Origin: a virus
Lineage: Duplodnaviria > Caudoviricetes
Length of the DNA: 64,000 bases
IMG/VR virus record: IMGVR_UViG_3300021400_000885
Span: 39,910 to 103,909 of that record
Reading direction: 5' to 3' (one strand)
Every line of letters begins with the position of its first letter. Position 1 is the stretch's first letter. The notes under the pieces are model-generated. The model made no database searches, had not been told where the DNA came from, and was given only the letters and a program-made list of their open reading frames with translations. Made by a program: the position numbers and the translations under genes. Below are positions 11,851 through 32,342 of this stretch, piece by piece.

Positions 11851-11860
11851 ATCTCTATTT

Positions 11861-14800
11861 TTAATTAACACACAAATTTAACTCTTTTTCAACCTCTTGC
11901 AACTGCTCAATAGATAAGTTAGAAACATTAATATCTTTAAGTATCTTTTTCATTTTCGCTGCTGCTGAGTTGTTATCAATATCATCCTTCTTGTCAAGAA
12001 TTCTTTGAGCAATCTCAAGTCTGTCAGATATATTATCAGTATCAGCAAAAATAATCTGGTCTAAAATATCAAGAGACTCATTTATTTCATTGACAGTTTT
12101 ATAGTATCTTGGCATTACTGGAGCCTTCTTAGGCTTTTCAGGCTCTTTCTTTTCTCCCTGAGATTGGCTTGGAGTAACTACTTTAAACATACTATGCATG
12201 TCTTCAACATCTCTAGATGGGTCAATTTCAAAGCCTTGATTGAGACCACCAAGTTTTTCAAGAGGATGAACCTTAATTAAGTAAGTTCCTTTAATCTTAT
12301 AAAACTTCTTCTCAGAACTCTTTTCGTTCTTCTTAATGGCAACAATACCATTAGGGAAAGTGGGACTTAAGGTATCAAAGGTTGTAATGCCATTTGGATT
12401 AAGAGACACTCCCATCAGCTTTTCAAACTCCTCTTGAGTATAAACTCCAACATTAGCTATACCATTATTAAGCATAAACTGCTCCAAGAGTCTGTCAATA
12501 TGAATATCATTATAAACAGCTGCAGCATCAAGATTCTGTAAGTAATTAGGAAGAGCTTGCTTAACTGAACTTGGAACAAGACTCATGAAAGATTTGCCAC
12601 TAAAACCAAATCCAGCAAGGACAAAGTTATATTGAACAAGCCTTAAAGCAAGATTTTCATCCACATCAAAAGCATTTTCACCAAGTCTCTTTGCTTCATC
12701 TTCAAGAAGCTTAGACCACCCTTGCTTTAAATCTTGTATTTCAGTAGCATCTCTTCCTCTTGTAGGAACTCTCAGTATCTTATTACCATGTTTATCCTTA
12801 TTAACTCTAATAGCCTTTAAGAACTTATTATCTGGATATAAAGCTTTTGCACTAGTTACAACATCTGGAGTAGTTTCATATATCATATCTCTATGGTACT
12901 GCTCACCATTGTCACTTAAGTCAAATATTGGATTGTCAATATTGACCACATAAGACATAATAAAGTCTGAAAGCTTCTGGGCAGTTTTATCATTTAAATA
13001 TCCAAGTTTGGCATCTGCAGCTCTATATATGTTATTAGCAAATTCCCCTCCTTGAATAAAGTTTTGTCCAATTAATTTACTTTCAAGTTCATATGCTTTT
13101 TCCCTAAAGGCTTTAATTATAGGATTCTGAAGGATGGATTGAGCACTTGGAGAAATGCTATCATTAGTACTAAAATTAATATCCTGAATCTTTGAAACTG
13201 CTGTATGTGCTGCAAATGGACCAACAGCAGCTGCTATTGAATTATACCTTGTAACATGAGTAACCTGTCTAAATGCATTGGCTATTTTATTGATTCTTGA
13301 CACAGTTTCAAGAATTTGGTAATCCATTCTAGCAATTGCCTCATCATCTCCTTCCCAATTATGAACTCTTATAAGGTCATCAACTGAAAGGTCATACTCA
13401 GCATCAAAAGTTATATCGTTGTACTTGTCAAGGATATTATCCTTCATCTTGGCTATAGTACTTTCAATACTTGTACTTCCATCAACACTGTCTCTTTCAT
13501 ATTGTTCAGTCATTCTCTTAATGACTGGTGTTGTAAGAAGCCATCCTATTGTATCAATATCATAGCCAAGTCTTATCAGAGCAACTGCAATATTTACAGT
13601 TGTCATATTAAGGTTAAACAGGTTAAGCACAGGGTCTTTTACAGCATCTACAGAAGCTGCAAGCAATGCTGCAAGATTCTGACTAACTCTTGTTACTCTA
13701 TCAAAGGCATACATAGGGTCAATTCTTACTTCCCCACCAATTCTGTGGCCAGCAAGAACAAAATCTCCATGTTCACCTTCTCCAAAATCCTTTACCTTAA
13801 ATGTAGGATTATCAAGAAGCCCCATAAACCCATGCGACACGTTAGCTTGAGCAAATACACCAATAAGTTTACCTGCCACACTATTCTGTCTATGGAAGTT
13901 TACCTGCACATTAGCAAACAGAAGGCTTGATTTCTTGTAAGCAAGGTCTTTAAGTTCACTAATACTTTTATCCTCAAGAGTGCTGGCAATATACTCAGTT
14001 CTGTCTGCAATATCTCCAAGTTCTTCATTAGGACGAGCACCTTCATTAAATGCCACATCAGCAGCCTTAATAAGATAACCAATCCTCTTAGGAACATCAA
14101 AGTTACCCGGAGAGAACATTTGGTCTACAACCTGAGGAGAAGTGAGAATTGCCTGTGTAATAGAGAGAATTGTGTTATTATTAGCTTCTCTCTTATCCTT
14201 CATATTGGTTGTGTAGTAAACCTCTCCTTTATACTTATTCCAAGCATCTTGAACCTCTTTCCAGTCATTCAGCTCTTCCTCAGATACTTCTTCTTTGGAC
14301 TTTTTAAGAAGTCCTATTATTCTTTGTTTTTCTTCATATAGCTCCTTTCCACTAAGTTCATTATCAGCATTTGTAAGAGCTTGTTCCTTAGCAAAATCTT
14401 CAAAAGATTTTTTCCTTCCCTTGCGGAAGGCATACCTCATTATATAGAGTTTATCAATATCAAAGTCTGAGCCTGTCAGAGTGGTAATATCAGCAGGAAG
14501 CATAATTCCTTCACCACCATTTCTCGGCAAGAATCCTACAATTTTTATAGGAACTATGGAATACTTAGCTTCTGTAGGGATACGATACCCAATCATTTCA
14601 AGAAGCTTAGGATTCATCTTTTCAATGGCTTTAACATCAATTACGCCATCCTCATCAGCAAAATCCATTAAAGCCTCATCATATATTGGAGCATAAGCTT
14701 CAAAATAAGCAAGACTATGCTGATTATCCCTTACATAAGACTCATACCACAAATCAAGAATACCTTTAAGCTCTTCCTCTGTAGTACCCTTAGGTACTTG

Positions 14801-17800
14801 TTGTACATAATCCTTAAAGTCAACATATCTTGCAGAGAATGAAGCACTACGTTTCTTTTGCTTCCTAATATATTGTTCAAACTCTTTTCTACTTAAAAGA
14901 AGCTTGCCATTTTCACTCTTAAACCTAATATTAAGGTCTTCAGATGTGCCATAAGCAGATACTTGAACAACTGGACCACCAGAGATTTCCTGCTTATTAA
15001 TATGATTTTTAATTACACTATTCAGTAGTTGCTGAAGTCTGCCAGAATGTATAGGGTCACTTAAAGGAATATTAAAATCGCCGTCCTCATTTACATCAAC
15101 TGCCCAAAGCATGTCAGCACCAAGTCTTCCATCTCTTAGAATCTCCTTCTTGAGGAGTCTACTTAATGCAATGTTTCTAAATTTCTTACTCTGACTGAAT
15201 CTTCCATCAAGACCAAGCTCCTTACTAAGCTCTTCAAAACTAAGTTCAATGTTTTCAGCAGTTGCTGCCATATATCTCTTCTTAGCCTCAGCTACAGTAA
15301 CATGCTCTGTAGTTACTCTTCCACCTCTTTCAGTTGTAATATCAACATAAAGGTCTTCTCCATTCTCTTTCTCAACAAGGTCAGCAATTGTATGAATTCT
15401 TACCTGAGAACCAATTTGTTGCTCTCCCTTAAAGTGTGGTGGAACCTCTTGTTGGATAGTATAATCATCAAATGGAATTGCAGTTACATAATTTGCATTG
15501 TATCCATCAGGTTGGGATGCATCATAAATTGCATTTCTAAGTGTAGAAAGTGCAGCATTATAATCCATCCCATTGATACTGATGACACCTTTAGCTCCAG
15601 TTTTTACACAGCTTTCAAACTGTACAGTATCAATACCTTTACCATTTGGAATAAATCTCTCTCCATCCTCAGACCAAGCTCCCTGAGATTCTTCCATAGC
15701 ATCAAATATGGCTGCTAATGGAGACTCAACACCTTGACTCTTCATTAAGGCATCTGCCATAACAAGCAAGAACTCAGAGTTTTTGTATTGAACACCAGTC
15801 TTAACAAGAGGCATTGCATCAGAACCTGTAGGTCTTGTTATTTGAGAATATACGAAAGGTTTAAGAGGCTGCCAAATAACATTCAAATCCTCTTCACTAA
15901 AGTCTCCTTTCAGTACCTTTTCATAAGCAGTCTCATCTTGTTTAGACCACTTACCATACATATGCATTTTCTTACGGTAAGATGTTGGAGATGAATATGC
16001 TTGACCATCAGTCCATTTGTTGCTCTCAGCAGAGAATACCTTAATTACACTATCAAATTTCTTTTTAAGGGATTTGCCTAATTTAGTAAGAGGAGCATTT
16101 ACATTGTCTCCTTCATGATACTTTGGATTAGCAAGCATATTGCTAAGTGCCTGCTTAATATTGATTAAAGCTACAGAAGCAACCTCTTCATCTTTTATAA
16201 TAAGGCTTCTGTGCACACCATCAGAAACATTCTTTTTATAGGTAATATCCTTTGCTTGAATGTTTGCTCTCATTCCTGGAGCATGTAACTGAGCAAGTCT
16301 CTTCTGTAAATTCTCTGCATTTTTATAAAGAGCAATATCACCAACTGTAAGCTGAAGAATATTCAGTGTTGCAAAGAAATCATTGTAGAAATACTCTCTT
16401 AGTACTTCTTTTCTTGTGCCATTCTTTGTTACAAGCTTATCAATCTGGAACACACTTACAACACCAGAATCAGGATTTCCTTTCTCTCCAAGGGTAAGGA
16501 AACCAGCTTTTTCAGCATCAAGCAAGTACTCATTAAATCTTTCATCAAGACCTTCTTTAATTGCTTGAGAAAGTAATTGTCTGAATTCCTTAGCTTCAGT
16601 AGAGTCTCTTTCAAGGCCTTCACCATTAACAACTTTTCTTAAAAGTTCCCCAAATCTGTCTTTTCCATTCATTCTCTCGTTGAGGAAAGGAAGGAAATGA
16701 AAAACTGTTCCATTCTTATCAAAGTTGTCAATCTTTTGGTCTTTAGGAATACTGTTTTGCCTGTCTCTTACAGCTTTGATTCTGTTTAATTCTTGATAGA
16801 ATGTATAATCTGTAAGCCAATTAACTATGGTGGATTCATAGTTTTCAGTAATTCTCTCAAACTTGAGGTACTCTTCTGAAGGCTTGTTGGACATTGTTGG
16901 CATCCTAAAGTAGCTGTAATTTTTATGTGCATCATACAGATACATTGATAAAAGGGATGCATAATACAAAGGGTCACTCTTATCTGAGTAAGCAGTTCCT
17001 TCATATGTTAAGGAAGTGACATGCTCAAGCATTCCTTTGTATCTCTCACCATCAGACCCATTAAGCTTGGCAAGCCAGTAATTCATAAATCCCTTAGGGC
17101 CTCTTGCACCATCTTCACTATTATAGAACCATCCTTCATATTTACCATACTCTCTCTGCATGAATGTCTGATAATTTTCAGGATTGCCTAAATAAGTCTT
17201 ACCTACTCTTCCCTTAAGCTTGTCTACTAAAATGCCTAAGTATGATGGAGTAACATATCCATAGTAAAGCTTACCGCCTTCATATGATACTGCCTCAGTT
17301 GCTGAAGCCATTACTGGGCTTATATATTTAATGATGGCTTTATAATTGCTTGAAGCATTTGGAATCTCAGTACCATTAATCTTTTCACCTTTTCTTCCAA
17401 ATAGCTCAAACCAGCCACCTTTCTCTTTAGCAAGATTTGCAGAAACCTCAATATTTCTGGTAGTTAAGTATCCTAAAGTTTTTACAAAATCAGTTAAATT
17501 CTGCTTGTTATTTGAGAATATATTAACAAGTTGACTTGCTTCTGGAGACTCAATATTTAATATCTCATAGATTTCCTTAATAGCATTGGCAACTCTAAGC
17601 TTGAGGTCTTGTGTAAGCTCCTCTCCCTTATCAAGCCTTTCAACAATTTGATTAAGGCCTGTTGCAGCAATCTCTGGCTTTCCTTTAACTTTTTGTCTTG
17701 GAGTACCTAAAATTTCTTTTAACCTATAGTAATCTTTAGTTAGTCCATTAGCATCTTTATCCCAAATTCTGAGCATTCCATAGTCAGCACTTTGAGCTAA

Positions 17801-20800
17801 AGATTGAATATTCTCAAGTGTTTCAACCTCAAAGGATGGACTATTAACAGACTTTGTAACTACATTACCCTTTGCATCAAGATAAGTTACAAAGTAACTC
17901 TGGAAATACTTTCTAAAATTAGTAAAGAACTGAGACTGGAATTGTTGCTCTTCAGGATTAACAAGTAATCCCTCAACAAGTTTAGAATTATCTGTACCAT
18001 TAGCATAATATGCAGTATCTCCTTTACCAACAAGTTGCCTTAACCAAGGGTCTGTACTAAGATGGGATGTAAGCATATCAACCATTTCTTCAAGGGTTGT
18101 TGCTTTTTGAGTCCATTGAAGAATCTTTGATATGGCTTCAGCAGTATCAATTGTTTTTGCCATACCAACAGAGTCAATCTTCATAGTTCCATCTTCATTC
18201 AAGTCATAAAATCTGCTTACAGTATTCTTTATGAGTTGAGAAAGGGAATTAAAAGCACTTACCTGCCTAAATCCAACTTGCCAATGCTCAACAGTACTTC
18301 CAAATACCTCAGCAAGCTCCTGCTCAGTTTCAGCATTTACATTATTTTCATTAGTGCCATCCTCATTTTCAATTACAAGCTGCTCTGTAACTCTTGCTTT
18401 AGGATTATCAAGAGTTACCTCTTCCAAATTAATAAGGGTATCATAAGCAAGCTGTTTAAATGCTTCAAAGTTATTGTAAATGACAGCAAGCTTATTTTTC
18501 ATCACAGAGCTCTTGATGTCAGTTCTTTTAGGACTGAATATTGCTTCCCTAATCTGAGTGTCAAAGAGAGTCCCCAATCCAATCTTATTCAGAATATCAA
18601 TTCTGGACATCTGAGTATAATCAATCTCTTTGCCCTCAGCATCATAAATAAGTGATTGATAATCCTTATTATTTCCAAATAGCCTCTTAACAGCTCCTTG
18701 CTCATTCTGAATAATACTGATACGCTCACTGACTTTAAATACTGACCTCTTAGCAAACTCTCTCAGTTCAGTTTGTGTGAATTTATTCTGCCCAAGAAGG
18801 TTATTTAACTCATTCCTTAAGGACATTTCATACTCTGTAAATCCTACAGTGAATGTAGGGATATAATACTTACCATCAGCATGAGGAATCTTTGCTTTAT
18901 TAAGAGCATCAACTTGTTCAGCAGTAAGGTTTTCTTCAGAAAGTGGAGTTGTTACATCAAGAGATTCAAAGATACTGTCACTCTTCATTCTCCTTAATAC
19001 TGTAATAGTATCAAGAATATCAGACACACTCTCTCCACCTATTTGAATCCTTGTACTTATATCAAGCTCTCCAGACAATACAAGCCTTATAATATGCTCA
19101 CGCTTGTCTTCTTGAGAAGTTTTCTCCTGCAAGGGAGTGATTGTAACGGTCTTTTTTGTATTTCCTTGATTCTCAGAAACTTCTATACTATAAGCATTTT
19201 TAACTGGAGTATTGCTTGCAGGCTTTTCTCCTGGGTCTTGGCTGGCAAGTTCCCTTGTAATTAAGGATGACATTGAAGCATCTTTAGGCATGCTCTCTAA
19301 AAATAAAGGCCTAGCAAATGAAATGGGATTTTCCTTCATTTGCTGGACAGTCTTTGCATATACCTGTCTTATTGCTTCAAGTCCATTGTCGTTAATTTCT
19401 CTTGTTCCAATTCCTGCAAAGTCTTTGGAAAGAGTAGGAGTTTCAGTTTCTACAAAGCTCTTAGTACCATAGTCATATTGATACCATTGGTTTTTCTCTT
19501 GGTCAAAAACATGTACTGGCTTACCTAAATTAATACCTATTTGTACAGCATATCCAGTGCCCCCTTTAACTTGAGTACCATCTAAAACTCCAATGGCAAA
19601 AATCTCAGATGCTCTGGTTGCCTGAGTAACATCTCTACCAATTAAATCTTGATATTTGGTAACAGTTTCAGCTTTTCTTCCCATATCTTTGGCTGCTTGA
19701 TATGCCAAAGGAAGTCCTTCTTTAAACTCTTTATCTGAAACTTCAACATTGCCTGCTGGAGTAGGATTGCCATGATAATAGTGCTTTAAAGATACACCAT
19801 ATTGCTCACCAACTCTTCCCCACCAAGTATCACTTCCAGCAGCACCACCACTATGCAAAGTGAACTCACCAAGGATGGGTAATTGAGATGTTTTAGATAC
19901 TTTACGGGGAGATTTATTATTATCTATAGTTTCACTAAGTTCTGTATATGAGCCTATATTTTCATTATTTCCTTGTTCTGAAACTACTACAGAGACATTT
20001 CTACTCCTTGTAAGGGCAGTATACATCATTTCTGCTCTTTCAATGTCTCCCCAAATTCCTGCCTTGAGTATATTATCTTTATCAACAGCTACTATATCAT
20101 ATGTTGAGCCCTGAGCCTTGTGGTCAGTTACTGCATATCCGTATGATATATCTGCATATTTACCGAATTCTTGCCAGTATGCTTTCCAAGCAGTTCTATA
20201 TGGTATTCTGTTTGATTTTGGTATTCTCTTAGCCTCCTCATGAAGAGCTTTAACCCTACTTTCATGCAAGTTTAAACTTTCTTTGTCTTTAGGGTCAATT
20301 CTTCTTACTGTAACAGAGCTTCCATCACTTAAATCAATAGAAATTTCTCTATATTTTACACCATCATCTTCATATTCATCTGAAACCTCTGTTACCTGAC
20401 CCTCTGCAGAGTTTTCAATTATAGGACTATCAAAGCTGTTTAGAGAAATTTTATATGGCTCATTAAATATTATTAAGTCTCCTTCGCAAATAAGGTTTGG
20501 ACTTTCTGGGAAAAGAACTCTACGAATATCATCATTCCAAGAGTCTACTGATCCATTTGTAGCTGTGACAATTTTTACATGAGTAGGATTACCTTCTTTT
20601 ACAGCCTTTTTAAATCCATCCATGATACTTGACAGCACAAAAGGCTTTGTCTCAAATATAAGAGCTCCAAGCTTTGTAATACTTGTTTCTCCACTTATTG
20701 AGTAAATACTATTGTCAGTTTTTCTAGTACTAATATTCCAGAATTTGTCTGCATATGAAAGGATAGGAGAGTTCTCACCTTGTCTTATTCTCTTGGTGAG

Positions 20801-22048
20801 ATTCTCTACTTGCATATCTTTACTACTAAATATGGTGGATTTGTGACTCCTTTCTCCTTTTTTAGGTATTGGACGTATTTGTCCTTCATCACCTAAGAAA
20901 CACACAACAGTCCTTGGATGTTCACTTACATACTTGTCAATGTTTCTCATTATGGTATCAGATACCATAGAGGCCTCATCAACAAAAATAAGGTTATACA
21001 TACTGTATTTAGCCTTATTCTCATCAACTGCAAACTTTTCTGGACCACTTAAAGGGTCTGCTCCAGCAAGAGTATATAAAGTTTCTGTCTGAGCTCCTAA
21101 GTCTTGCATTTTTTCAGAAAGAACGTGGACTGCTTTTCTTGAAAGAGCAGCAACACAAAAACTTGGATATACTCTCTGTTTTTCAAGACTTTGTACAATA
21201 CTACGTACAATAGTAGTTTTACCAGTTCCTGCCATACCTTGAATAAGCAGGAACTTCTTACCACTTGGAGACTCCCCAGTTCTCATTTTTTTGGATATGA
21301 AAGAAACTGCATTGTCTACAGCAGTTTGTTGTTCTTTGGTAAGAACAATCTTTGACATGTCCTGAGTACTTACTGGAAGGTCTTCTTCTGCAGAAACAGT
21401 TTCTGTCTTTCTTACTTGAGAATGACCAAATTCATTAATATAAACTTCTGATGTTCCATCTTCCAGTCCTTTATAAAGAGCCTGACTTTCTTTTAGTTTT
21501 TGTTGAAACTCTGCAAGGTCATCCTTGTCTTGCTGGGTGGCACGATTCCATTTTATTTTTTCTTGAAGTTTTTCAATAACCCCCTCTTCAAACTCAATTT
21601 TATTGCGAAGTAAGTCTTTCGCAGACTTAATGTCTTCTTCTGTTACATTTGTTGTAGCCTGACTCGTTTTGCTCTGAATGGGTTTTGCAATATGAATCTC
21701 ATTCTCTCCAGTATCTTTAGTGACTAAGAACACATTAGGTTCACCAAAAACTCTTTTAAGTTGAGTAAACTGTTCTACACTGCTAAGACTGGCAACTTCT
21801 CCTTCTGGAACAAATATTCCATCATTGGTATACTTATTATAGAAATCTATAATTTCTTGTCTTTGTGTTAAAAATGTTTGGTCTCTATAGTAAGTCTTTG
21901 CTTCATCCTCACTTGGGAAGCCATCTTCAGAACCAGTTTTTGCTCTCCAAAGGTATACAATTCCTGCTGCAGATGGAGCAGTTAACCCAAGACTTTTTGC
22001 ATAGTTCTGAAAAGTCTTACCGTTAATATCAATACAAGATTTTGCCAT
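11861..22048 (-). CDS. Virion-associated RNA polymerase with N-terminal SF1B helicase and SLOG-like domains
   Basis: GYRIPTE...GSDFDIDK catalytic motif (14453-14467); GMAGTGKTT, DEASM, HKAQGSTY, YTALTR helicase motifs; HSGGAAGSD...GGTGYAV. Confidence 0.9.
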   Translation of the reverse strand: MAKSCIDINGKTFQNYAKSLGLTAPSAAGIVYLWRAKTGSEDGFPSEDEAKTYYRDQTFLTQRQEIIDFYNKYTNDGIFVPEGEVASLSSVEQFTQLKRVFGEPNVFLVTKDTGENEIHIAKPIQSKTSQATTNVTEEDIKSAKDLLRNKIEFEEGVIEKLQEKIKWNRATQQDKDDLAEFQQKLKESQALYKGLEDGTSEVYINEFGHSQVRKTETVSAEEDLPVSTQDMSKIVLTKEQQTAVDNAVSFISKKMRTGESPSGKKFLLIQGMAGTGKTTIVRSIVQSLEKQRVYPSFCVAALSRKAVHVLSEKMQDLGAQTETLYTLAGADPLSGPEKFAVDENKAKYSMYNLIFVDEASMVSDTIMRNIDKYVSEHPRTVVCFLGDEGQIRPIPKKGERSHKSTIFSSKDMQVENLTKRIRQGENSPILSYADKFWNISTRKTDNSIYSISGETSITKLGALIFETKPFVLSSIMDGFKKAVKEGNPTHVKIVTATNGSVDSWNDDIRRVLFPESPNLICEGDLIIFNEPYKISLNSFDSPIIENSAEGQVTEVSDEYEDDGVKYREISIDLSDGSSVTVRRIDPKDKESLNLHESRVKALHEEAKRIPKSNRIPYRTAWKAYWQEFGKYADISYGYAVTDHKAQGSTYDIVAVDKDNILKAGIWGDIERAEMMYTALTRSRNVSVVVSEQGNNENIGSYTELSETIDNNKSPRKVSKTSQLPILGEFTLHSGGAAGSDTWWGRVGEQYGVSLKHYYHGNPTPAGNVEVSDKEFKEGLPLAYQAAKDMGRKAETVTKYQDLIGRDVTQATRASEIFAIGVLDGTQVKGGTGYAVQIGINLGKPVHVFDQEKNQWYQYDYGTKSFVETETPTLSKDFAGIGTREINDNGLEAIRQVYAKTVQQMKENPISFARPLFLESMPKDASMSSLITRELASQDPGEKPASNTPVKNAYSIEVSENQGNTKKTVTITPLQEKTSQEDKREHIIRLVLSGELDISTRIQIGGESVSDILDTITVLRRMKSDSIFESLDVTTPLSEENLTAEQVDALNKAKIPHADGKYYIPTFTVGFTEYEMSLRNELNNLLGQNKFTQTELREFAKRSVFKVSERISIIQNEQGAVKRLFGNNKDYQSLIYDAEGKEIDYTQMSRIDILNKIGLGTLFDTQIREAIFSPKRTDIKSSVMKNKLAVIYNNFEAFKQLAYDTLINLEEVTLDNPKARVTEQLVIENEDGTNENNVNAETEQELAEVFGSTVEHWQVGFRQVSAFNSLSQLIKNTVSRFYDLNEDGTMKIDSVGMAKTIDTAEAISKILQWTQKATTLEEMVDMLTSHLSTDPWLRQLVGKGDTAYYANGTDNSKLVEGLLVNPEEQQFQSQFFTNFRKYFQSYFVTYLDAKGNVVTKSVNSPSFEVETLENIQSLAQSADYGMLRIWDKDANGLTKDYYRLKEILGTPRQKVKGKPEIAATGLNQIVERLDKGEELTQDLKLRVANAIKEIYEILNIESPEASQLVNIFSNNKQNLTDFVKTLGYLTTRNIEVSANLAKEKGGWFELFGRKGEKINGTEIPNASSNYKAIIKYISPVMASATEAVSYEGGKLYYGYVTPSYLGILVDKLKGRVGKTYLGNPENYQTFMQREYGKYEGWFYNSEDGARGPKGFMNYWLAKLNGSDGERYKGMLEHVTSLTYEGTAYSDKSDPLYYASLLSMYLYDAHKNYSYFRMPTMSNKPSEEYLKFERITENYESTIVNWLTDYTFYQELNRIKAVRDRQNSIPKDQKIDNFDKNGTVFHFLPFLNERMNGKDRFGELLRKVVNGEGLERDSTEAKEFRQLLSQAIKEGLDERFNEYLLDAEKAGFLTLGEKGNPDSGVVSVFQIDKLVTKNGTRKEVLREYFYNDFFATLNILQLTVGDIALYKNAENLQKRLAQLHAPGMRANIQAKDITYKKNVSDGVHRSLIIKDEEVASVALINIKQALSNMLANPKYHEGDNVNAPLTKLGKSLKKKFDSVIKVFSAESNKWTDGQAYSSPTSYRKKMHMYGKWSKQDETAYEKVLKGDFSEEDLNVIWQPLKPFVYSQITRPTGSDAMPLVKTGVQYKNSEFLLVMADALMKSQGVESPLAAIFDAMEESQGAWSEDGERFIPNGKGIDTVQFESCVKTGAKGVISINGMDYNAALSTLRNAIYDASQPDGYNANYVTAIPFDDYTIQQEVPPHFKGEQQIGSQVRIHTIADLVEKENGEDLYVDITTERGGRVTTEHVTVAEAKKRYMAATAENIELSFEELSKELGLDGRFSQSKKFRNIALSRLLKKEILRDGRLGADMLWAVDVNEDGDFNIPLSDPIHSGRLQQLLNSVIKNHINKQEISGGPVVQVSAYGTSEDLNIRFKSENGKLLLSRKEFEQYIRKQKKRSASFSARYVDFKDYVQQVPKGTTEEELKGILDLWYESYVRDNQHSLAYFEAYAPIYDEALMDFADEDGVIDVKAIEKMNPKLLEMIGYRIPTEAKYSIVPIKIVGFLPRNGGEGIMLPADITTLTGSDFDIDKLYIMRYAFRKGRKKSFEDFAKEQALTNADNELSGKELYEEKQRIIGLLKKSKEEVSEEELNDWKEVQDAWNKYKGEVYYTTNMKDKREANNNTILSITQAILTSPQVVDQMFSPGNFDVPKRIGYLIKAADVAFNEGARPNEELGDIADRTEYIASTLEDKSISELKDLAYKKSSLLFANVQVNFHRQNSVAGKLIGVFAQANVSHGFMGLLDNPTFKVKDFGEGEHGDFVLAGHRIGGEVRIDPMYAFDRVTRVSQNLAALLAASVDAVKDPVLNLFNLNMTTVNIAVALIRLGYDIDTIGWLLTTPVIKRMTEQYERDSVDGSTSIESTIAKMKDNILDKYNDITFDAEYDLSVDDLIRVHNWEGDDEAIARMDYQILETVSRINKIANAFRQVTHVTRYNSIAAAVGPFAAHTAVSKIQDINFSTNDSISPSAQSILQNPIIKAFREKAYELESKLIGQNFIQGGEFANNIYRAADAKLGYLNDKTAQKLSDFIMSYVVNIDNPIFDLSDNGEQYHRDMIYETTPDVVTSAKALYPDNKFLKAIRVNKDKHGNKILRVPTRGRDATEIQDLKQGWSKLLEDEAKRLGENAFDVDENLALRLVQYNFVLAGFGFSGKSFMSLVPSSVKQALPNYLQNLDAAAVYNDIHIDRLLEQFMLNNGIANVGVYTQEEFEKLMGVSLNPNGITTFDTLSPTFPNGIVAIKKNEKSSEKKFYKIKGTYLIKVHPLEKLGGLNQGFEIDPSRDVEDMHSMFKVVTPSQSQGEKKEPEKPKKAPVMPRYYKTVNEINESLDILDQIIFADTDNISDRLEIAQRILDKKDDIDNNSAAAKMKKILKDINVSNLSIEQLQEVEKELNLCVN

Positions 22049-22049
22049 G

Positions 22050-25000
22050 TTAACAAGTATATTTATCTAATAATTGTTCTAAATCTTCTTGAGAGTGTAC
22101 ATTCATATACATTCCTTTTGTATGAGGATTAGCCTCCAATAAAGAAATAACTCTGTCTATAGTAAGGTCTCCATTTTCATCTAATCCAAATAATTCAATT
22201 ACTCTATCTAAGTTAGCATCATTCTCTACAAAGGTACTGAAAAGATTCTCAAAATTCTCTTGTGCGTGCTGGAATCTTAACTCACTTGCAGATATTTTTC
22301 CCTCTGTAGTCATACCATTAATTGAGTTACCCTTAGAAGCTGGTGTTGTTGGAGTTTGACTGGAATCTTTTTCACCTTCCTCTTGAGGAGTTAACTGAGG
22401 AGTTTCTCCAGCCAGTGCTTCAAGGTCTTTCAGTGCTTGTGTTGACCTTTCTGCATCTTGTTGTTCGAGCAAATAATCTAGAACCTCTTTGTATTTATCA
22501 TCTGATGGATTTAATTTCCAGAATCCTGCCTCAGCTGTTTTAGCATATATTCTGAGATTTTCACCAGTTCCAAATACCCAGTATTTTACTTTTTGTGAAC
22601 CTGTCGGAAGTTCTATTGCATTATCATTAGTTGCTTGAATTACATCTTCAAGAATTGCTAAAATATTAGGGTCTGTGACAGTATTTCTTCCAACCATACC
22701 ATTAGTTGAGAAAGTGCCATCAGACATATATGAATATTTAATTCCCTTTATATAAACAACACCTTGAACTTGATTAACAGCTCTTTGGTTCTTTCTTTCA
22801 ACAGTTGGTTCTGGAGAAGTGTTGATTGTACCATCTGTATTAGGTACATACATATATGCTTTAGCATTTACTGCTCCCCAGTTTCTTAAATTAACTTGAA
22901 GTACATTAGAATTCACATAGTATTCAGGATTATCCGTAAGAGTTTTTGTATTGATAGCAACTCTTGGATTTAATGTACTTACAAGATTAATTAATGACTG
23001 AAGCTTTTCTTCTGCAGACATTCCTCCATCTAAGAATAAGGCCGAATCGTCCTTAACATCTCCAAATTGTTGGATTCTTATAGAGTTATAATTAAGGTTT
23101 GTCTGTCCATCAACTTCTTCTCTTGTATCATAGAATATCTGATTACCAGCAACTGAACCAAATACCAACTGGCTTCTTAGAACACCAAATAAGCCTTCAA
23201 GCTGATTAATATCAGTTGGGTCTGTAGAAGCAATACTTCTAAGTGTATTCATAATATCTTGATACACTTGACCATTTTGTTCTGAGAGTTGGTTAAATGT
23301 AAAAGGACTTATAAATTGAGCTATGTATCTTCCATCAGCAACTGGCATCCATACAATTACTTGACCCGGATGATGAAGGTACTCTGTATCATAGATTTGG
23401 TCTTCAGGATTAACTCTGATGTGTCTATGAGTCACAGTTCCTTCCTCTTCATCACCATAAACAACAGTGAATTTAAGGTCTTTGACCTGAGCTCCTGTTG
23501 GATTATTGTTGTCTAAAACAGCTTTTAAGCTTGTATCATTATCTTCCTCTTCAGAGTTCTTTCTAAGTACAGTTCCTGGAGAAACATCATAAATATAGTT
23601 TGTCCATTCTCCATTTTCTCCTTCATCAAGAATTTCGTAAAGAGCATCTGAGTTCTTATCATTTCTTTGTTTGGAGATTCTGTCACTTATTGCTTTATGA
23701 GCTTTTTCAAGCTTTTTCTGACCTGTAGAATATCCATAATTACCTACAATAAGATACTTACCATCTGGAGTAATATTTCTTTGAATGTTTACATCAGATT
23801 GAGGAAGAATCTTTTTAACTTCATCATTATACTCAGTTACTAAAAGAATATGAGGTTTTCCTCCTTTGCCATTCTTTTTTCTTACTCCAGTAGCTAAAAT
23901 ACCATCAGGATAATACATGGCATATTGTACTTTTAATTTGCCATCATTTCCCTTGATATTCATTAGTTTGTGTAGGAAATTATTAACAATATAATCTATT
24001 CCCTCAGCAAAGGGGAATGAATACCATTGCTGTGAGGAAGGGTTTGTATCTTCAAGTTTTCTCCCAATACCGTCAGCAATTCCTAAGTTTCCATCATTGC
24101 CAACTGCATACTTTCTGAAACTGTTAGCTCTGGCAGATAATTCAGCTTCTTGAGCTTTTTCTTTGTCTTTGTCAGTTTCATCAGGATTCTCTCGAATGGG
24201 CTCACTAACTTGGGTGTTTCCAGCCTCACCCCCCCGGAGGGGGGGTGGTGTAGTAACACTCCCTTTAGGAGCTTCATTGGAAGTGTATAACTCTTTGAAC
24301 TTGTCTGTAGTTAGGTCTAATAAGTCATTAAGTTCATTACTTTCTTCTTCAGTTAAATTCTCCTTATCAATAAGTTCAATAAGTCTGTCTAACCCATCAC
24401 CAAAGCGTTTCCTCATATACCTGCTTGCATAGGACTTTGCTCCTTCTTTATCAGTTATATAAAACCTTGGTTTTTGTGGTTCTTCATCTTCTTTAATCTT
24501 TACTTCTCTTTCAGTTCCTTCTTCAGTACCTTCACTCTTAGGAGTTTCTCCAAAATCAATATTTATCTCTGTAGAGCTGCTTTCAGTTCCTGTAGGAGGA
24601 GCTAAATTATCTTCATTATTACTCTTTGGCTTTGTCTCTTCTTTTTTCTCAGCCTTCTTTTTTCTTGGTTCAGCAGCTTTATAGGCAATCTCATTTTTCT
24701 TTAAGTCATCTACAACATCACTAAGGATTCCTTGAATTACAGCTGCTGTATTTGCTGCTTCTTGGCTTGGCGATTCAACACTCTTTAAGGATTCTGCAAG
24801 GTTACTTAAAGTATCAATAAATGAGTCCTTAGAGTATTGGACATTCTCATCTTCTATATAATCTTGTATAGCTCCTTGTATTACACTTTCAGCTGCAAGT
24901 GTCCAAGATAATTTAGCAGCTTGAGCTTGTTTAATCTGTTCATCAGTCATTTCTGATGACATTGGAATAACATTTTCAACTGCATTATTTATAGAGTCAT

Positions 25001-27563
25001 GATATGCATTCAGTACTGAAATAAATGGCTTAAACTTCTCTAACAAAGTCTTTGTTTCACCCTCAGATTCTGCAACAGCCTCATCAAAAACTGCCTGTTT
25101 GTTTTCAACATCAGCACTTAAATAAATATCACCAAGCTCCTTTAAAGTAGTAACTCCTTTTACAGCATTCTTAAGAGATTCTGCATCTTTAGTAATTCGT
25201 GCTAAAGAAGCAAGGTCATCCATTCTTTTTAAGGAGTGGGCATAGTTTTCTAAATTAGTAATGTCTCTATTATAGCTGTCTAGCTTTTTATCAATTTGAT
25301 TATCAATCTCACTAATAGCAGAAGTGTAAGTTGTAGTATGCCTAACACGCTTATCAACATCAGACATTGAATCTAATTCAGATTGAAGCTCTTCTTTCCT
25401 TCTTTCCAAATCCCAGATTGTGGTTGCCTGTGCTGTAAGGTCAACCATCATACTGTGTACAAGACTAGTTGCCCTTTCATTAGCATCTGGTAATCCTTCA
25501 TATACTTTTTGAGCCTCTTTTAATGCTTTTTCAGTATACTTTAATGTATGACTATCATGAAATTCCAGTGCCTTATCAATCTTCTCTAATGTAGAGCTAG
25601 CCTTATCTTTTAATACTTTTCTTAGCTCTTCACTATCCATTCCATCGTAAGGAGACATGCCATTCATAGTTTGTAATTGCTCCCTTACTTGCAGAAGGTC
25701 ATCATCAGAAACTTCATCTTTCATTGCCTCATAGAAAGATTTATAAGCATCTAATGCACCATTATTCTTAAAGAACAGTGCATCATTTACTATCTGAGCA
25801 AGTTCCTTATTCTTGTACTGAAGAACATCTCCAACTCTAAGAAAGTGGTCCATTTCTTCAGTTAAAGACATTGCTGTGACAGCATGCCTTACCCTTTCTC
25901 TGAATTCTGGTTTTTGGATAGCATCATTAAAGCTGCTGACAAACTTTTCAGCATCTTGTTGTCTTTCTTTAATACCAGCAATTTCTTCCCAGATACCACC
26001 TTGCATTCCAAATCCCCTCTTTCCTTCCCTGCTTTTCTTAACATTGAATGTTCCAATTCCTCCAGTCAGAGCTCCAAGGAATACTTCTTCCCAACCTGTG
26101 GAAGAAATGTCCCCAAAAGCAGTATTCCAAGCATGATAAAGAGCCTTATACTTGTCTACAAGCTCATCAGTAACATCGGGGTTTATTCCCTTTGCATAGA
26201 AAGAATCATCAGTTTTCTTAGCCCAAACATTAAGTCTTGCTTGCTCTTGCATTTGGGCACTGTCTGAAATAAGTCTTTGAGAGCCCTCTTCAAATCCCTC
26301 TTCAGCCATTCTAGCTACAGTACCTCCAATAATCTTTCCTACTTTGTTCTTTCCGAGCTCTTCAGATACTTGCAGGGCAGCCTCTCCCTTTGCCATAGCT
26401 TTACCAAATTCTTTAAGACTTTCAGTCTTTTCTCCCTTGGCAAGCATGTCAAGATTCATAAATCCCTTTTGTGTGTTGTATCCTCCCTTTAAATACTTTC
26501 CGAACTCTAAGTTATTAGTTAATGAAAGTAAAGCAAGGTTTGCCAAATAAACAGAGTTACCAACATTAATAATGCCTTTTTCAGCTTCCTGAACTGCAGT
26601 ATTATAATCATTATTAATATTATCCAGTTCAGCCATATAAGCATCATAGGGATTCAACTCTCCTTCTTGAGGAATTCTATACTTATTCCTTTCATATTCC
26701 TCAGTTGCAGCCCTTATAGCTTCATTTCTTCTCTCTCCAAGATTTCTTATTTCAGCATCAAGGTTATCTTTGGTGGCATTAATGGCTTCAATAGAAGCTT
26801 CACCATGTGCTGAGATTAAAGTATTTCCAACTCTTGAAACAAGCCTTCCAGCTTTATCAGCTCCTCTAAGAGCCTTCTCCCCAAAGTTTAAAGCCCTACC
26901 AGCAGTAGAAATGCCCTTTCCAAGCCAAGCCATATCAAACCCGGGAACTGCCATAGTTGCTAAAGCACCAGCAGTAAAGCCCATATTCTTAAGGAACTTA
27001 TCTCCCCAGAAGTTTGCTGAAAGAAGATTTGCAGCACTGTACCAAGGAGAATTGAGTTGCTCCTCAGTATAATAGTTTGGAGCAATTTCTTCCATTTTCT
27101 CTTGGGCAGAAGCCATCCACTTGTTAAAGTCATTATTCCAAAGACCATTTCTAAACGTGGTTTTTGGGTCATTGTCCAGAGCATTAGCAGTTCCTTGTGC
27201 AAGACCAACTAATCCACCTACAGTACCATCAAGAAATGTTGTAACTGCGGTAGTTCCCATTTTAAGAATACCAGCACCAAGTTGAACTACTCCAGGTTGG
27301 TTCTCAGCTCTTAAATTTGCAACACTCTGTGCTTCATCAACACTAAGGATATTCTTATCCCACATTGAAGAGCCAAAGTCTGCTCCAGTACTCATTGGAG
27401 TAATTTGACCATAAGACTCTGCTATATTTCTATGGGCTTGCTCTGGAGTAATAAAGTTGGGCTTTACATGTAACTGCTTAATTAACTCTGCAGTATCAAT
27501 ATCTTGTTTTGTATTTACTCCTTTCAATCCTACTGGACCAGTTTTAGTAATATCTTTAAGCAT
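22050..27563 (-). CDS. Large virion cargo/ejection protein (crAss001 gp47-like)
   Basis: 1837 aa; Gly/Ala-rich hydrophobic N-terminal region, EEGFEEG.Q motif, synteny. Confidence 0.7.
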   Translation of the reverse strand: MLKDITKTGPVGLKGVNTKQDIDTAELIKQLHVKPNFITPEQAHRNIAESYGQITPMSTGADFGSSMWDKNILSVDEAQSVANLRAENQPGVVQLGAGILKMGTTAVTTFLDGTVGGLVGLAQGTANALDNDPKTTFRNGLWNNDFNKWMASAQEKMEEIAPNYYTEEQLNSPWYSAANLLSANFWGDKFLKNMGFTAGALATMAVPGFDMAWLGKGISTAGRALNFGEKALRGADKAGRLVSRVGNTLISAHGEASIEAINATKDNLDAEIRNLGERRNEAIRAATEEYERNKYRIPQEGELNPYDAYMAELDNINNDYNTAVQEAEKGIINVGNSVYLANLALLSLTNNLEFGKYLKGGYNTQKGFMNLDMLAKGEKTESLKEFGKAMAKGEAALQVSEELGKNKVGKIIGGTVARMAEEGFEEGSQRLISDSAQMQEQARLNVWAKKTDDSFYAKGINPDVTDELVDKYKALYHAWNTAFGDISSTGWEEVFLGALTGGIGTFNVKKSREGKRGFGMQGGIWEEIAGIKERQQDAEKFVSSFNDAIQKPEFRERVRHAVTAMSLTEEMDHFLRVGDVLQYKNKELAQIVNDALFFKNNGALDAYKSFYEAMKDEVSDDDLLQVREQLQTMNGMSPYDGMDSEELRKVLKDKASSTLEKIDKALEFHDSHTLKYTEKALKEAQKVYEGLPDANERATSLVHSMMVDLTAQATTIWDLERRKEELQSELDSMSDVDKRVRHTTTYTSAISEIDNQIDKKLDSYNRDITNLENYAHSLKRMDDLASLARITKDAESLKNAVKGVTTLKELGDIYLSADVENKQAVFDEAVAESEGETKTLLEKFKPFISVLNAYHDSINNAVENVIPMSSEMTDEQIKQAQAAKLSWTLAAESVIQGAIQDYIEDENVQYSKDSFIDTLSNLAESLKSVESPSQEAANTAAVIQGILSDVVDDLKKNEIAYKAAEPRKKKAEKKEETKPKSNNEDNLAPPTGTESSSTEINIDFGETPKSEGTEEGTEREVKIKEDEEPQKPRFYITDKEGAKSYASRYMRKRFGDGLDRLIELIDKENLTEEESNELNDLLDLTTDKFKELYTSNEAPKGSVTTPPPLRGGEAGNTQVSEPIRENPDETDKDKEKAQEAELSARANSFRKYAVGNDGNLGIADGIGRKLEDTNPSSQQWYSFPFAEGIDYIVNNFLHKLMNIKGNDGKLKVQYAMYYPDGILATGVRKKNGKGGKPHILLVTEYNDEVKKILPQSDVNIQRNITPDGKYLIVGNYGYSTGQKKLEKAHKAISDRISKQRNDKNSDALYEILDEGENGEWTNYIYDVSPGTVLRKNSEEEDNDTSLKAVLDNNNPTGAQVKDLKFTVVYGDEEEGTVTHRHIRVNPEDQIYDTEYLHHPGQVIVWMPVADGRYIAQFISPFTFNQLSEQNGQVYQDIMNTLRSIASTDPTDINQLEGLFGVLRSQLVFGSVAGNQIFYDTREEVDGQTNLNYNSIRIQQFGDVKDDSALFLDGGMSAEEKLQSLINLVSTLNPRVAINTKTLTDNPEYYVNSNVLQVNLRNWGAVNAKAYMYVPNTDGTINTSPEPTVERKNQRAVNQVQGVVYIKGIKYSYMSDGTFSTNGMVGRNTVTDPNILAILEDVIQATNDNAIELPTGSQKVKYWVFGTGENLRIYAKTAEAGFWKLNPSDDKYKEVLDYLLEQQDAERSTQALKDLEALAGETPQLTPQEEGEKDSSQTPTTPASKGNSINGMTTEGKISASELRFQHAQENFENLFSTFVENDANLDRVIELFGLDENGDLTIDRVISLLEANPHTKGMYMNVHSQEDLEQLLDKYTC

Positions 27564-27567
27564 GTTC

Positions 27568-29277
27568 TTACTTATTTATATTCTTTGACCCAATATGTTC
27601 CATAATAGACATTGGAATATCTCCTAAGACAGCATCATAGTCATCAAGATTTTGCAGCTGCTTAAAGTACCCATCAATAAGCTGTGCTTCTGGAGAATCT
27701 TGGAGCCCGTTCTGTACTAAATATTTATATAATTCTTCAAACTGGTCTTCACTAATACCTCTTTGAGCAAAGTAATCCTTTGTTGTTTTAATTAATTCCT
27801 GTGTATTTTCAAGATTTGACTTTCCACTTGGTGTAGTTCCTGGGGCAACAATGGTTGCCAAAGATGCAAGAATTTCATTACTTAAAATGCTCTTTGGAAT
27901 CTGATAGTATTCATTTTGGTACTTTAAAATCAGCTCATTTGCTTGTGGGTCATACCTTAATTCGCTTTCAGCATCTGTCTTATATTTAAGTGTTTCTGTT
28001 TTTCCATAAACAAGTTCACCGTTGGATTTTCTGTCCTTAATCTTTTTTGCATCACCATTATTGCTTATCATATTAAGCATTCTCTTAGTACCAGCAGCAT
28101 CAAGATTCCATCTTAACTGACTTGTATTATTTGCATCAAGACTTGCATCATCATTTATGGCTTTAATAGCATTTTCAACTTGAGACCTTGACATGTTAGC
28201 AATCTCTTCATCAGAATAATATTTACCTAACATATCTACCAAAGCTTCGTATTGCCTGTTTTCCTTTGTTTGATAGTTATACTGTTGACCTGTAGGTGCT
28301 TGAATTGTCTGATACTTTTCAGGCTCTACAAGTTTACCATCTTTAAATAACTTGTCACTTAAAGTCAATGCTCCAGTTTTCTTATCTACAAACATTCTTG
28401 CAGAGGTGTCTCTATCCCTCTCAAATATCATAGATGTGGTTCCTACATTATGTAATGTTCCAGAGCCTCCACTTCCAGATTTACCAGATTTTTTGTTGTT
28501 TAATTTTGCTTTGTTTTCTTGCTCAAGTAACTTGTATTGATGTGCTCTTGCTTGGTTTGCTGCAGTTATGCCTCCCTTGTATCTTGCAAGGTCTTTTGCA
28601 TAAGCATTTTTCATAGCAAGCTTTGCTTCTTCTTCAGCAAACTTTGACCTCTTAGCTCCTAATCCATTCAATATACCACTTTGGATTATGCTTAATGCTT
28701 GCTCTGGATTAGCAAGATTTTCAATACCTGAAGATTCTGCCACTTGTTGCATAGCTGCTAATACATCCTCTTGAGTAGAATTTAAATCTAATGAGCTTCC
28801 AATTCCCGCAGCTTGAGCAAATAACTTGTCACCAGAAAGTATAAATGGTTTTGCATTAGGGTCTCTTACCAAGTCATCAACTGTTGGAACATTTCCAATC
28901 ATTAAGGTTGGGTCTTGAATTGATGCCTTTCTTAAAGTGTCCTGCATAGTTTGATAATTAGCAGTTGCACTTTTAATTTTAGCAATGTCACCATTATACT
29001 GCCTTCTTAGGTTAAACAGGGCATTCCTGCTTACAGCTTTAAGACCATTAGCTGACAAATCTTGAGCAGCTTTTTCAAGGGCTGAATTGTATGCTTGAAC
29101 CTTTTGTCCTGATTCAGAATTTGGGTCTAAGTATTGTTGTAATGCTCCAGCTTCCTCACCAAGGGTTGCTAAAGTATTAGTAACGTTGTCATACTCCTGC
29201 TTGTATGCTTGAAGAGGAGCTATCCTTTCTTGAAATGAGAAAGGTTGAAATTGTGCTGTAATTGCGTATCTTCCCAT
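27568..29277 (-). CDS. Cargo protein (crAss001 gp46-like)
   Basis: N-terminal FQPFSFQE motif, synteny. Confidence 0.65.
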   Translation of the reverse strand: MGRYAITAQFQPFSFQERIAPLQAYKQEYDNVTNTLATLGEEAGALQQYLDPNSESGQKVQAYNSALEKAAQDLSANGLKAVSRNALFNLRRQYNGDIAKIKSATANYQTMQDTLRKASIQDPTLMIGNVPTVDDLVRDPNAKPFILSGDKLFAQAAGIGSSLDLNSTQEDVLAAMQQVAESSGIENLANPEQALSIIQSGILNGLGAKRSKFAEEEAKLAMKNAYAKDLARYKGGITAANQARAHQYKLLEQENKAKLNNKKSGKSGSGGSGTLHNVGTTSMIFERDRDTSARMFVDKKTGALTLSDKLFKDGKLVEPEKYQTIQAPTGQQYNYQTKENRQYEALVDMLGKYYSDEEIANMSRSQVENAIKAINDDASLDANNTSQLRWNLDAAGTKRMLNMISNNGDAKKIKDRKSNGELVYGKTETLKYKTDAESELRYDPQANELILKYQNEYYQIPKSILSNEILASLATIVAPGTTPSGKSNLENTQELIKTTKDYFAQRGISEDQFEELYKYLVQNGLQDSPEAQLIDGYFKQLQNLDDYDAVLGDIPMSIMEHIGSKNINK

Positions 29278-29279
29278 AA

Positions 29280-32228: not shown

Positions 32229-32246
32229 AGTGTACACTCTTTTATG

Positions 32247-32254
32247 CAAATATA
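32247..32254 (-). promoter_or_regulatory. Bacteroidota sigma-A -7 element
   Basis: TATATTTG(CA), 18 nt upstream of the ATG and just downstream of a terminator. Confidence 0.65.
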
Positions 32255-32292
32255 AGATATTAAGTAGGATAAGTAAAAAAGAATATTAAAAT

Positions 32293-32333: not shown

Positions 32334-32342
32334 AAATTCTTA

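Follow-up and report, generated by a model that had tools for sequence, protein, structure and literature searches.

Among the crAss-type RNA polymerases, presence in the virion and ejection into the cell are known for phages phi14:2 and crAss001 only: gp66 of phi14:2 is packaged, translocated into the cell and active in vitro on single-stranded DNA templates only (Drobysheva preprint), and the crAss001 homologues of the giant cargo proteins have been detected in virions by mass spectrometry (PMC10172136). The fusion described below bears on how such a polymerase gets started on the double-stranded phage DNA inside the cell. QDE-1 of Neurospora, a eukaryotic structural relative of gp66, prefers single-stranded templates and depends on a helicase and the single-strand-binding factor RPA (Drobysheva preprint); the helicase concerned, QDE-3, is a separate RecQ-type enzyme with a role in eukaryotic silencing, unlike the fused helicase reported here, and may serve as an analogy only. 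A further precedent is provided by the polyvalent virion proteins, an established theme that includes N4 virion polymerases fused to accessory enzymes (Iyer et al. 2017, PMC5512222). Such proteins are giant, multi-enzyme products of late virion genes, believed to enter the cell along with the DNA and to act immediately. The N4 polymerases, however, are T7-like single-subunit enzymes, in contrast to the two-barrel polymerase considered here, and the helicases of that survey are UvrD-like or of the SWI2/SNF2 type, the latter paired with a methylase; it does not describe a two-barrel polymerase that carries an SF1B helicase and a SLOG domain.

We report the analysis of a stretch of viral DNA of 64,000 nucleotides (IMG/VR record IMGVR_UViG_3300021400_000885, positions 39,910 to 103,909), hereafter the window, in which one open reading frame of 3395 amino acids without an internal stop (P0001; 11861-22048) encodes an N-terminal head, a helicase, a SLOG domain and a virion RNA polymerase body. 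This gene, its parts and the neighbouring cargo genes all lie on the (-) strand. The polymerase body (aa 941-3395; 11864-19228) is recognised by its homology to gp66 (6vr4; E 2e-21 by PDB phmmer, across the DFDID region) and to crAss001 gp50 (26-28% identity in two blocks totalling about 2100 aa), and the catalytic DFDID (aa 2528-2532; 14453-14467), which fits the DFD[IV]D motif of the crAss-type polymerases, falls inside the homology to gp66 and gp50. Neither gp66 (2180 aa) nor gp50 (2412 aa) has a helicase or a SLOG domain, unlike P0001, and the N-terminus of gp50 corresponds to about aa 965 of the longer protein. In all three phages the polymerase gene has its place in the cargo block: that of P0001 follows the genes for the muzzle, cargo protein 1 and cargo protein 2 (27568-36716) and stands between a crAss001 gp47-like giant upstream (1837 aa; 22050-27563) and a gp49-like giant downstream (1372 aa; 7753-11871), tightly squeezed between the two. 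A family A DNA polymerase gene (3264-5324, (+) strand) has no helicase gene behind it. Judged by homology and gene order, P0001 is the putative virion-packaged RNA polymerase of a Steigviridae-like crassvirus, a crAss-like gut phage; Megablast of the region against a phage collection returned no match, and the phage is known from metagenomes alone. The background on gp66 given in an earlier, sequence-only reading of this DNA (packaging, ejection, and activity on single strands in vitro) is borne out by the preprint.

That reading had placed a complete set of SF1B helicase motifs and the DFDID centre in the same 3395-aa frame with no stop between them, and every motif it quoted can be located in the translation. 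The helicase core spans aa 231-693 (19970-21358), in agreement with the interval of 19990-21350 (aa 233-686) first assigned to it, and contains Walker A or motif I (GMAGTGKTT, aa 271-279; 21212-21238), Walker B or motif II (DEASM, aa 357-361; 20966-20980), motif III (GDEGQIRPI, aa 386-394; 20867-20893), motif IV (RIRQ, aa 420-423; 20780-20791), motif V (YAVTDHKAQGSTY, aa 638-650; 20099-20137) and motif VI (YTALTR, aa 676-681; 20006-20023). Searches with Pfam (AAA_30, E 2.6e-18; UvrD_C_2, E 7.5e-7), PHROG (325, 'Dda-like helicase', E 8.6e-68) and the PDB by phmmer (T4 Dda, 3upu, E 2.8e-12) agree upon its family, with matches that chance cannot account for. Domain parsing with AlphaFold2, as had been proposed, gave a Dda-like fold for aa 201-700 with a mean pLDDT of 89, for which the top Foldseek matches are Deep-Sea Helicase 9 (DSH9), T4 Dda (TM 0.78 by target) and RecD2, some 480 columns being aligned with 8jx6, 3upu, 8s9i and 3gpl. 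The predicted architecture is that of Dda, with two RecA-like domains, an accessory 1B and SH3-like 2B/tower elements; residues 325-383 of the model are beta-rich and followed by two long helices, which fits 2B plus tower, and the pin region is of lower confidence.

T4 Dda (3UPU, 8GME) and DSH9 (8JX6) share with the P0001 helicase all seven motifs and, as far as the model shows, the fold (Foldseek E 1e-28; TM by target 0.73-0.78), but they stand alone as proteins of about 440 aa and have roles in replication or recombination, whereas the present enzyme forms one part of a 3395-aa cargo protein encoded in the late virion block. The residues that define the SF1B motifs are all in place (Q240, G274/G276/K277, D357/E358, G386/D387/Q390, R422, H643/Q646/G647 and R681). 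Across 117 giant fused homologues (24-54% identity), 11 of 15 catalytic positions are invariant in all sequences, G274, G276, K277 and R422 among them (117/117), and the other four vary in one to five sequences. To judge from these residues and the model, the helicase looks active, and it would be a 5'-3' single-stranded DNA motor.

The fusion would be an artefact if the assembly were chimeric, if the frame concealed a stop or frameshift, or if the helicase had decayed, and we regard this as exceedingly improbable. A single 19.5-kb contig from another study (run X6) spans window positions 17500-22499 with 266 substitutions and no gap, contigs from two further runs bridge the helicase/SLOG junction, and contigs of 57 to 102 kb from the Logan and ENA assembly sets encode the same 3395-aa protein or near-copies of 3337 aa. 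Decay is argued against by the conservation of the catalytic residues together with the confident Dda-like model, and homologous helicase-polymerase fusions number in hundreds. Some weaker contig joints, such as that of X5 (20360 to 22064; 21 letters on one side), were discounted as unreliable.

A linker (aa 694-727; 19868-19969), marked by low pLDDT at the start of the next model, leads from the helicase to a domain of the SLOG superfamily (aa 728-900; 19349-19867), closest to the cpYpsA type. Sequence comparison gives a match to PHROG 768 (E 6.6e-5), but no Pfam match even at E 10, PF12694 (cpYpsA) and PF02481 (DprA) included, and no match in a PDB sequence search. The AlphaFold2 model (pLDDT 90.8) had nothing below E 0.001 in Foldseek, and VIA-align alone resolved its fold: Z 13.0 against 3imk (rmsd 3.3, 135 aligned residues), with Z 6.4-7.2 against LOG-like, MCP, DprA and YpsA structures (DprA 6.6-6.9). 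The predicted fold is Rossmann-like with Gly-rich loops, and the motifs HSGGAxGxD and GGT are invariant. The domain is thus classed by its modelled fold only and not as a member of the DprA or cpYpsA families. Its solo homologues are proteins of about 205 aa. A second linker (aa 901-940; 19229-19348) leads into the polymerase body, homology to close relatives restarting at aa 920-941.

Pfam and PDB sequence searches with the first 230 aa of the protein and with the linker brought no useful match. Comparison with relatives, on the other hand, defines a conserved head at aa 1-130 (21659-22048), which matches the N-terminal ends of P0382, P0384, P0005, P0004 and P0006 over aa 4-129 and is also conserved in relatives without the helicase; as a guess, it may be a packaging or ejection signal. 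Relatives with the same head and body but a different middle show that the helicase and SLOG domain occupy a variable slot between the head (about aa 1-130) and the body (about aa 940 on). In P0381, the nearest polymerase relative (47% identity over 2557 aa), the head is joined straight to the body, and the cassette regions of P0381, P0382 and P0383 hold no Pfam domains.

The distribution of the helicase is patchy. Homologues of the polymerase number 2661. Of the 150 nearest polymerase clusters, 35 have the helicase and 115 lack it, a pattern that the polymerase tree explains with no fewer than 23 gains or losses. Near-complete IMG/VR relatives, recovered with a polymerase-core profile in a sample of 39 that one metagenome dominates, have it in 16 cases, 15 of them in an open frame of at least 2492 aa and the sixteenth across the ends of its record; a scan of IMG/VR with the helicase plus SLOG segment as a single-protein query returned no match. 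The genomes of crAss001, which is cultured and whose virion polymerase works, and of cr116_1, the closest named relative, contain no Dda-like helicase anywhere. Where a giant protein does bear the helicase, polymerase homology lies in the same chain, on either side of DxDxD, in 95 of the 119 best such proteins, and most of the other 24 are polymerases with DLDID or DFDTD motifs or the C-terminal pieces of split polymerases, so that the helicase stays on the polymerase polypeptide.

Its position on that polypeptide differs by lineage, N-terminal to the polymerase in some and C-terminal in others. Two RefSeq crassviruses of the Suoliviridae, cr50_1 (gp059, 4774 aa, annotated 'DNA helicase') and cr118_1 (gp14, 4946 aa, annotated 'exonuclease V'), hold a Dda-like helicase in a giant gene, as does P0001, but they belong to a different family, their helicase is just ~27% identical to that of P0001 and it lies C-terminal to the polymerase centre. 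The polymerase DxDxD was confirmed in the helicase-bearing chain of cr50_1; for cr118_1 the analysis covered the C-terminal part of gp14. Solo relatives are found elsewhere: the nearest, P0143 (37% identity), lies directly behind PolA and near UDG in another phage, on a contig of ~102 kb, and the solo copies of cr127_1, cr8_1 and Rudgehvirus adjoin UDG and DNA polymerase genes. Solo and fused forms are intermixed on the helicase tree, with at least 11 switches between them, and none of the genomes checked holds more than one Dda-like helicase, whether fused or solo. Replacement of a solo replication helicase by the fused copy was considered and is not established: the sampled genomes of the polymerase clade have the fused form or none, never the solo form, and the named genomes are too few for a test. 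Other enzymes fill the same slot, or the same protein, in relatives: ART-PolyVal in cr116_1, and NADAR, DUF1848, PD-(D/E)XK, RNase H and cpYpsA in others. P0001 is very large, has several unrelated enzymatic domains, is encoded among the virion late genes and varies in domain content among close relatives, all of which are features of polyvalent proteins.

The reading we favour, to which we give a probability of about 45%, is that the helicase is an optional, injected 5'-3' single-stranded DNA motor that would help on the incoming genome and have no required part in the polymerase. An acquired cassette of Dda-like helicase and cpYpsA-type SLOG domain, held on flexible linkers between head and body, would be packaged and ejected with the polymerase as one chain, so that an ATP-driven motor arrives at the incoming genome ahead of any phage gene expression. 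By peeling the duplex there, or by clearing it of bound host proteins, the motor could give access to a polymerase that prefers single strands; on the non-template strand, a motor of 5'-3' polarity would run co-directionally with a polymerase reading the template 3'-5'. The helicase would then be a dispensable enhancer outside the core mechanism. The phages of closely related polymerases that lack any Dda-like helicase imply that a role in transcription is at most auxiliary. The unrelated enzymes found in the same giant proteins fit a general carrier of effectors equally well as a polymerase-specific helper, and the solo relatives in replication modules indicate roles in replication or recombination. 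Both a helper role in transcription on incoming DNA and roles unrelated to transcription are plausible.

If the polymerase chain were a vehicle only, the helicase and SLOG domain would act apart from transcription, for example in end processing, recombination or the start of replication of the incoming genome, or in the removal or reversal of host defence actions on DNA. The swapping of unrelated enzymes in the slot, the precedent of the polyvalent proteins (PMC5512222), the solo copies beside PolA, UDG or DNA polymerase and the interleaving of solo and fused forms, one per genome at most, all speak for such a hitch-hiking effector; yet the helicase rides the polymerase chain or a fragment of it and not a protein holding only the other two giant cargo proteins, which are also thought to be ejected, and the few copies in a virion would be a small supply for replication, leaving this explanation possible but rather unlikely. 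The sequence-only reading had instead made the helicase the agent that opens the duplex for the polymerase or helps to pull the genome into the cell. The restriction of gp66 to single strands in vitro, the dependence of QDE-1 on QDE-3 and RPA, the covalent linkage of the two enzymes, the strict conservation of the ATPase motifs and the presumed opposite polarities on complementary strands, which would allow co-directional movement, are all consistent with an enzyme integral to the polymerase. As a general requirement this nevertheless fails against crAss001 and cr116_1, against the 115 helicase-free clusters and against P0381, with nothing between head and body, while the helper role in it stays plausible. 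Placement at one end or the other by lineage further argues against a fixed structural coupling, and an obligatory opener at early promoters or a genome-pulling motor is, to our minds, improbable. SF1B enzymes such as Dda and RecD2 run along single strands, which sits badly with the hauling of a duplex.

The helicase part could also be cleaved off or act elsewhere. Cleavage at the linkers before packaging, or late action in the producing cell (in replication, recombination or the processing of DNA for packaging), would mean that it never reaches the next cell; long linkers do flank the domains, the gene lies within the late cargo block and the authors of the gp66 work deem cleavage of the fused giant polyproteins likely (Drobysheva preprint). 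Against this stands the head, which precedes the cassette and has been conserved by relatives without one as well, suggesting that the N-terminus stays on the body, and there is no protease-site evidence; we consider this explanation highly doubtful. A bolder form of the helper model, which we judge unlikely, is a tethered, bipolar machine for unwinding and transcribing, with the 5'-3' motor on the non-template strand and the polymerase moving 3'-5' on the template. In this way a polymerase dependent on single strands might transcribe the duplex as it enters, linear and relaxed, with no need of supercoiling or single-strand-binding protein from the host, and genome entry might perhaps be faster. 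The part of the SLOG domain would be to keep hold of the displaced strand or to sense a nucleotide signal, and phages lacking the cassette would rely on host factors instead.

Nature supplies matched polymerases that either have a helicase built in or lack one, P0001 against P0381-like proteins or crAss001 gp50, which makes the question of how these enzymes start on duplex DNA directly testable. Furthermore, a defined slot would mean that the most abundant gut phages use their ejected polymerase as a platform from which swappable enzymes are delivered, with a bearing on host range, on counter-defence and on how thousands of giant genes now called 'hypothetical' are annotated. No text mention of a fusion between an SF1B helicase and a crAss polymerase was found in Yutin 2021 and its preprint, the Drobysheva preprint, Bayfield 2023, the Crassvirales review or the Zeta-group paper, and an earlier depiction is possible, for instance among the coloured domains in Figure 3 of Yutin 2021. 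The swappable slot, the SLOG companion and the C-terminal version of the fusion in RefSeq are additions to the sequence-only reading. The fusion itself is already visible in the RefSeq annotation of cr50_1 and cr118_1, and some giant genes are at present misannotated, with 'DNA helicase' or 'exonuclease V' as their whole label.

The virion RNA polymerase of this Steigviridae-like crassvirus (P0001) is encoded on the minus strand by a stop-free open reading frame of 3395 codons, from 22048 to 11861, in which a Dda-like helicase and the DFDID polymerase centre (aa 2528-2532) lie in a single chain, as the sequence-only reading had claimed. All of the motifs quoted in that reading are located within the frame, namely the Walker A motif GMAGTGKTT (aa 271-279), DEASM (aa 357-361), GDEGQIRPI (aa 386-394), RIRQ (aa 420-423), YAVTDHKAQGSTY (aa 638-650) and YTALTR (aa 676-681), and its interval of 19990-21350 corresponds to aa 233-686, the helicase core. 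The protein matches AAA_30 (E 2.6e-18) and UvrD_C_2 (E 7.5e-7) in Pfam, the 'Dda-like helicase' family PHROG 325 (E 8.6e-68) and, amongst PDB sequences, T4 Dda (E 2.8e-12) and, across the DFDID region, the phi14:2 virion polymerase gp66 (6VR4; E 2e-21). At the level of sequence, both the helicase and the polymerase matches far exceed chance.

The source IMG/VR virus record comprises 103,909 bp with a completeness rating of 100%, and contigs of four public runs were aligned to 17500-22500 to check its continuity. A 19.5-kb contig from a separate study spans this whole interval with 266 substitutions and zero insertions or deletions, and separate Logan and ENA assemblies contain an identical protein of 3395 aa, along with near-copies of 3337 aa; the fusion is therefore no artefact of assembly, a concern raised with the original claim. 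Contigs from two further runs also bridge the junction between the helicase and the second, SLOG-like domain, and the gene lies in a tight head-to-tail arrangement with its giant neighbours. One contig, from a run of another study (X5), joins 20360 to 22064, omitting 1703 bases, a non-multiple of three, with 21 letters only on one side of the joint; it is probably spurious, but could represent a variant from which the head and half the helicase are missing.

With 60 solo homologues as input, AlphaFold2 gave aa 201-700 the Dda-like fold (mean pLDDT 89); the structures that match this model best are Deep-Sea Helicase 9, T4 Dda (TM 0.78 by target) and RecD2, with Pif1 and RecD ranking next. Fifteen catalytic positions were inspected across 242 aligned helicase segments, 117 of them from giant fused proteins. 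Despite identities of just 24-54%, 11 of the 15 are invariant in these 117, and T278, H643, G647 and R681 differ in one to five of them. Such conservation of aligned residues is a signature of selection for ATPase function within the fused context, and the P0001 helicase looks like a genuine Dda-like enzyme, predicted to be active.

Close relatives align to P0001 with 39-47% identity across about 2500 aa. Since these proteins retain a common N-terminal head of ~125 aa and a body that starts at aa 920-941 and differ in what lies between, the helicase is no mere appendage but occupies a variable cassette slot. The slot (19229-21658, minus strand) was delineated against the relatives P0381, P0382-P0384, P0002 and P0004-P0006 and the cr116_1 genome (L001:6058-13581). 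In P0001 it holds the helicase (aa 231-693), a linker, the second domain (aa 728-900) and another linker; both domains are present in reversed order, SLOG then helicase, in P0004-P0006, and the helicase alone in P0002. In P0381 the slot is empty, the head being joined directly to the body, P0382-P0384 carry uncharacterised inserts of 170-550 aa, and in gp051 of cr116_1 (Steigviridae, Pamirivirus), the closest named phage, the slot is filled by ~1100 unrelated residues that include an ART-PolyVal domain. The crAss001 counterpart, gp50, begins at ~aa 965 of P0001. The gene neighbourhood is a crassvirus cargo block of muzzle, cargo 1, cargo 2, a gp47-like giant, P0001 and a gp49-like giant. The cr116_1 polymerase is itself split: a small gene, gp050 (L001:13695-14342), is inserted just past the DFDID region, and the polymerase continues in gp049, an interruption of the kind reported for crAss-like polymerases.

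The second domain (19349-19867, minus strand) has zero sequence matches in Pfam or PDB. Its model (pLDDT 90.8) aligns best with 3imk (Z 13.0), a 'molybdenum carrier' SLOG protein of the cpYpsA type, and next with LOG-like, DprA, YpsA and ShosA chains (Z 6-7); by its modelled fold it is a member of the SLOG superfamily, and a DprA label was not adopted. Its solo homologues form 373 unnamed clusters (~205 aa, 40-48% identity), a large family that lacks a Pfam model; one of them, P0341, is encoded on a large phage-like contig, in the vicinity of genes for RNA ligase, DNA ligase and NUDIX proteins.

A search with P0001 aa 200-900, limited to targets of 1867-5942 aa, returned 602 giant proteins. 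Amongst the best 119 of these, 95 show homology to both helicase and polymerase within a single chain, some with the helicase on the N-terminal side and some on the C-terminal side, and the rest are mostly DLDID- or DFDTD-motif polymerases or C-terminal fragments of split polymerases. The fusion is already visible in public RefSeq annotations: in Suoliviridae, cr50_1 gp059 (4774 aa, DxDxD at 3154) and the giant cr118_1 gp14 (4946 aa) carry C-terminal helicases and are annotated 'DNA helicase' and 'exonuclease V', respectively. Elsewhere the helicase is a solo protein of ~490 aa adjoining UDG and DNA polymerase, as in cr127_1, cr8_1 and Rudgehvirus (Crevaviridae and Intestiviridae examples). 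The closest solo relative, P0143 (37% identity), directly follows PolA, unlike the PolA of the window (3264-5324), which has no Dda-like helicase neighbour. A profile search found at most one Dda-like helicase in each genome checked: fused only in P0001's phage, cr50_1 and cr118_1, solo only in cr127_1, cr8_1 and Rudgehvirus, and absent from cr116_1 and crAss001. At 2313-5324 (plus strand) a dUTPase, an aspartyl-protease-like ORF of retroviral type (2737-3267, plus strand; gag-asp_proteas E 2e-5) and PolA stand in succession in the replication module; crAss001 likewise has its aspartyl protease Gp66 a short way upstream of PolA Gp64.

A polymerase-core query, unbiased for the helicase, gave 2661 homologues, and the nearest 150 cluster representatives include 35 with the helicase and 26 with the SLOG domain. 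In these 150 the two domains occur together in 14, the helicase alone in 21 and the SLOG domain alone in 12, a co-occurrence above chance (odds ratio 5.7, p 2e-4). On the polymerase-core tree (FastTree, approximate), well-supported branches force a minimum of 23 changes in helicase presence, little below the shuffled mean of 31.5, and solo and fused forms are interleaved in the helicase tree (at least 11 switches). The helicase is present in 16 and absent from 23 of 39 near-complete IMG/VR relatives, many of which come from one metagenome and hence are not independent; an open frame of 2492-5226 aa surrounds it in 15 of the 16, and the other crosses the record ends, split into 1105- and 2747-aa frames. 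Judged from sequence comparison, these data show a helicase that is intact, under selection and covalently embedded in the cargo polymerase, and at the same time mobile and dispensable. Genome size is mostly 108-128 kb in relatives that have the cassette and mostly 86-106 kb in the others, which may be a lineage effect only.

Each part of P0001 comes from a known family (SF1B helicase, crAss-type two-barrel polymerase, SLOG fold) and the whole fits a polyvalent virion protein, or virion polymerase with add-ons. An SF1B and SLOG cassette on a crAss-type polymerase, a defined slot between head and body, and the variation amongst phages in whether the helicase is fused, solo or absent each appear new relative to the published text consulted; figures in Yutin 2018 and 2021 may depict the fusion.

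The phi14:2 polymerase gp66 is packaged, enters the cell, transcribes early genes and is active on single-stranded DNA in vitro (Drobysheva preprint), in agreement with the background given in the sequence-only reading, and its eukaryotic relative QDE-1 requires a helicase and RPA (Drobysheva preprint). The crAss001 homologues of the giant proteins occur in virions and must partially unfold for ejection (PMC10172136). We infer, with a probability of roughly 0.45, that the cassette is delivered together with the polymerase and would act on the incoming genome as a 5'-3' single-strand motor that exposes template or strips off bound proteins and thereby aids the polymerase; with opposite polarities on complementary strands, the two enzymes could travel together. 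That this motor is an obligatory opener or drives DNA entry is improbable, because such a helicase is missing from crAss001 and from most close relatives.

The principal alternative, in which the polymerase is only the carrier of a cassette that functions in replication, recombination or counter-defence, we consider less likely. The location of solo relatives in replication modules speaks for it, as do the ART, NADAR, PD-(D/E)XK, RNase H and DUF1848 domains on the same giant proteins, multiple enzyme domains that agree with the polyvalent-protein concept (PMC5512222); the helicase nevertheless keeps to the polymerase-bearing chain or fragment, which favours a tie to the polymerase. Helicase-bearing giant polymerases of other crAss-like phages (P0019, P0059 and P0083) also carry NADAR, DUF1848, PD-(D/E)XK, cpYpsA and RNase H domains; these enzymes handle DNA and ADP-ribose and may act together as a set.
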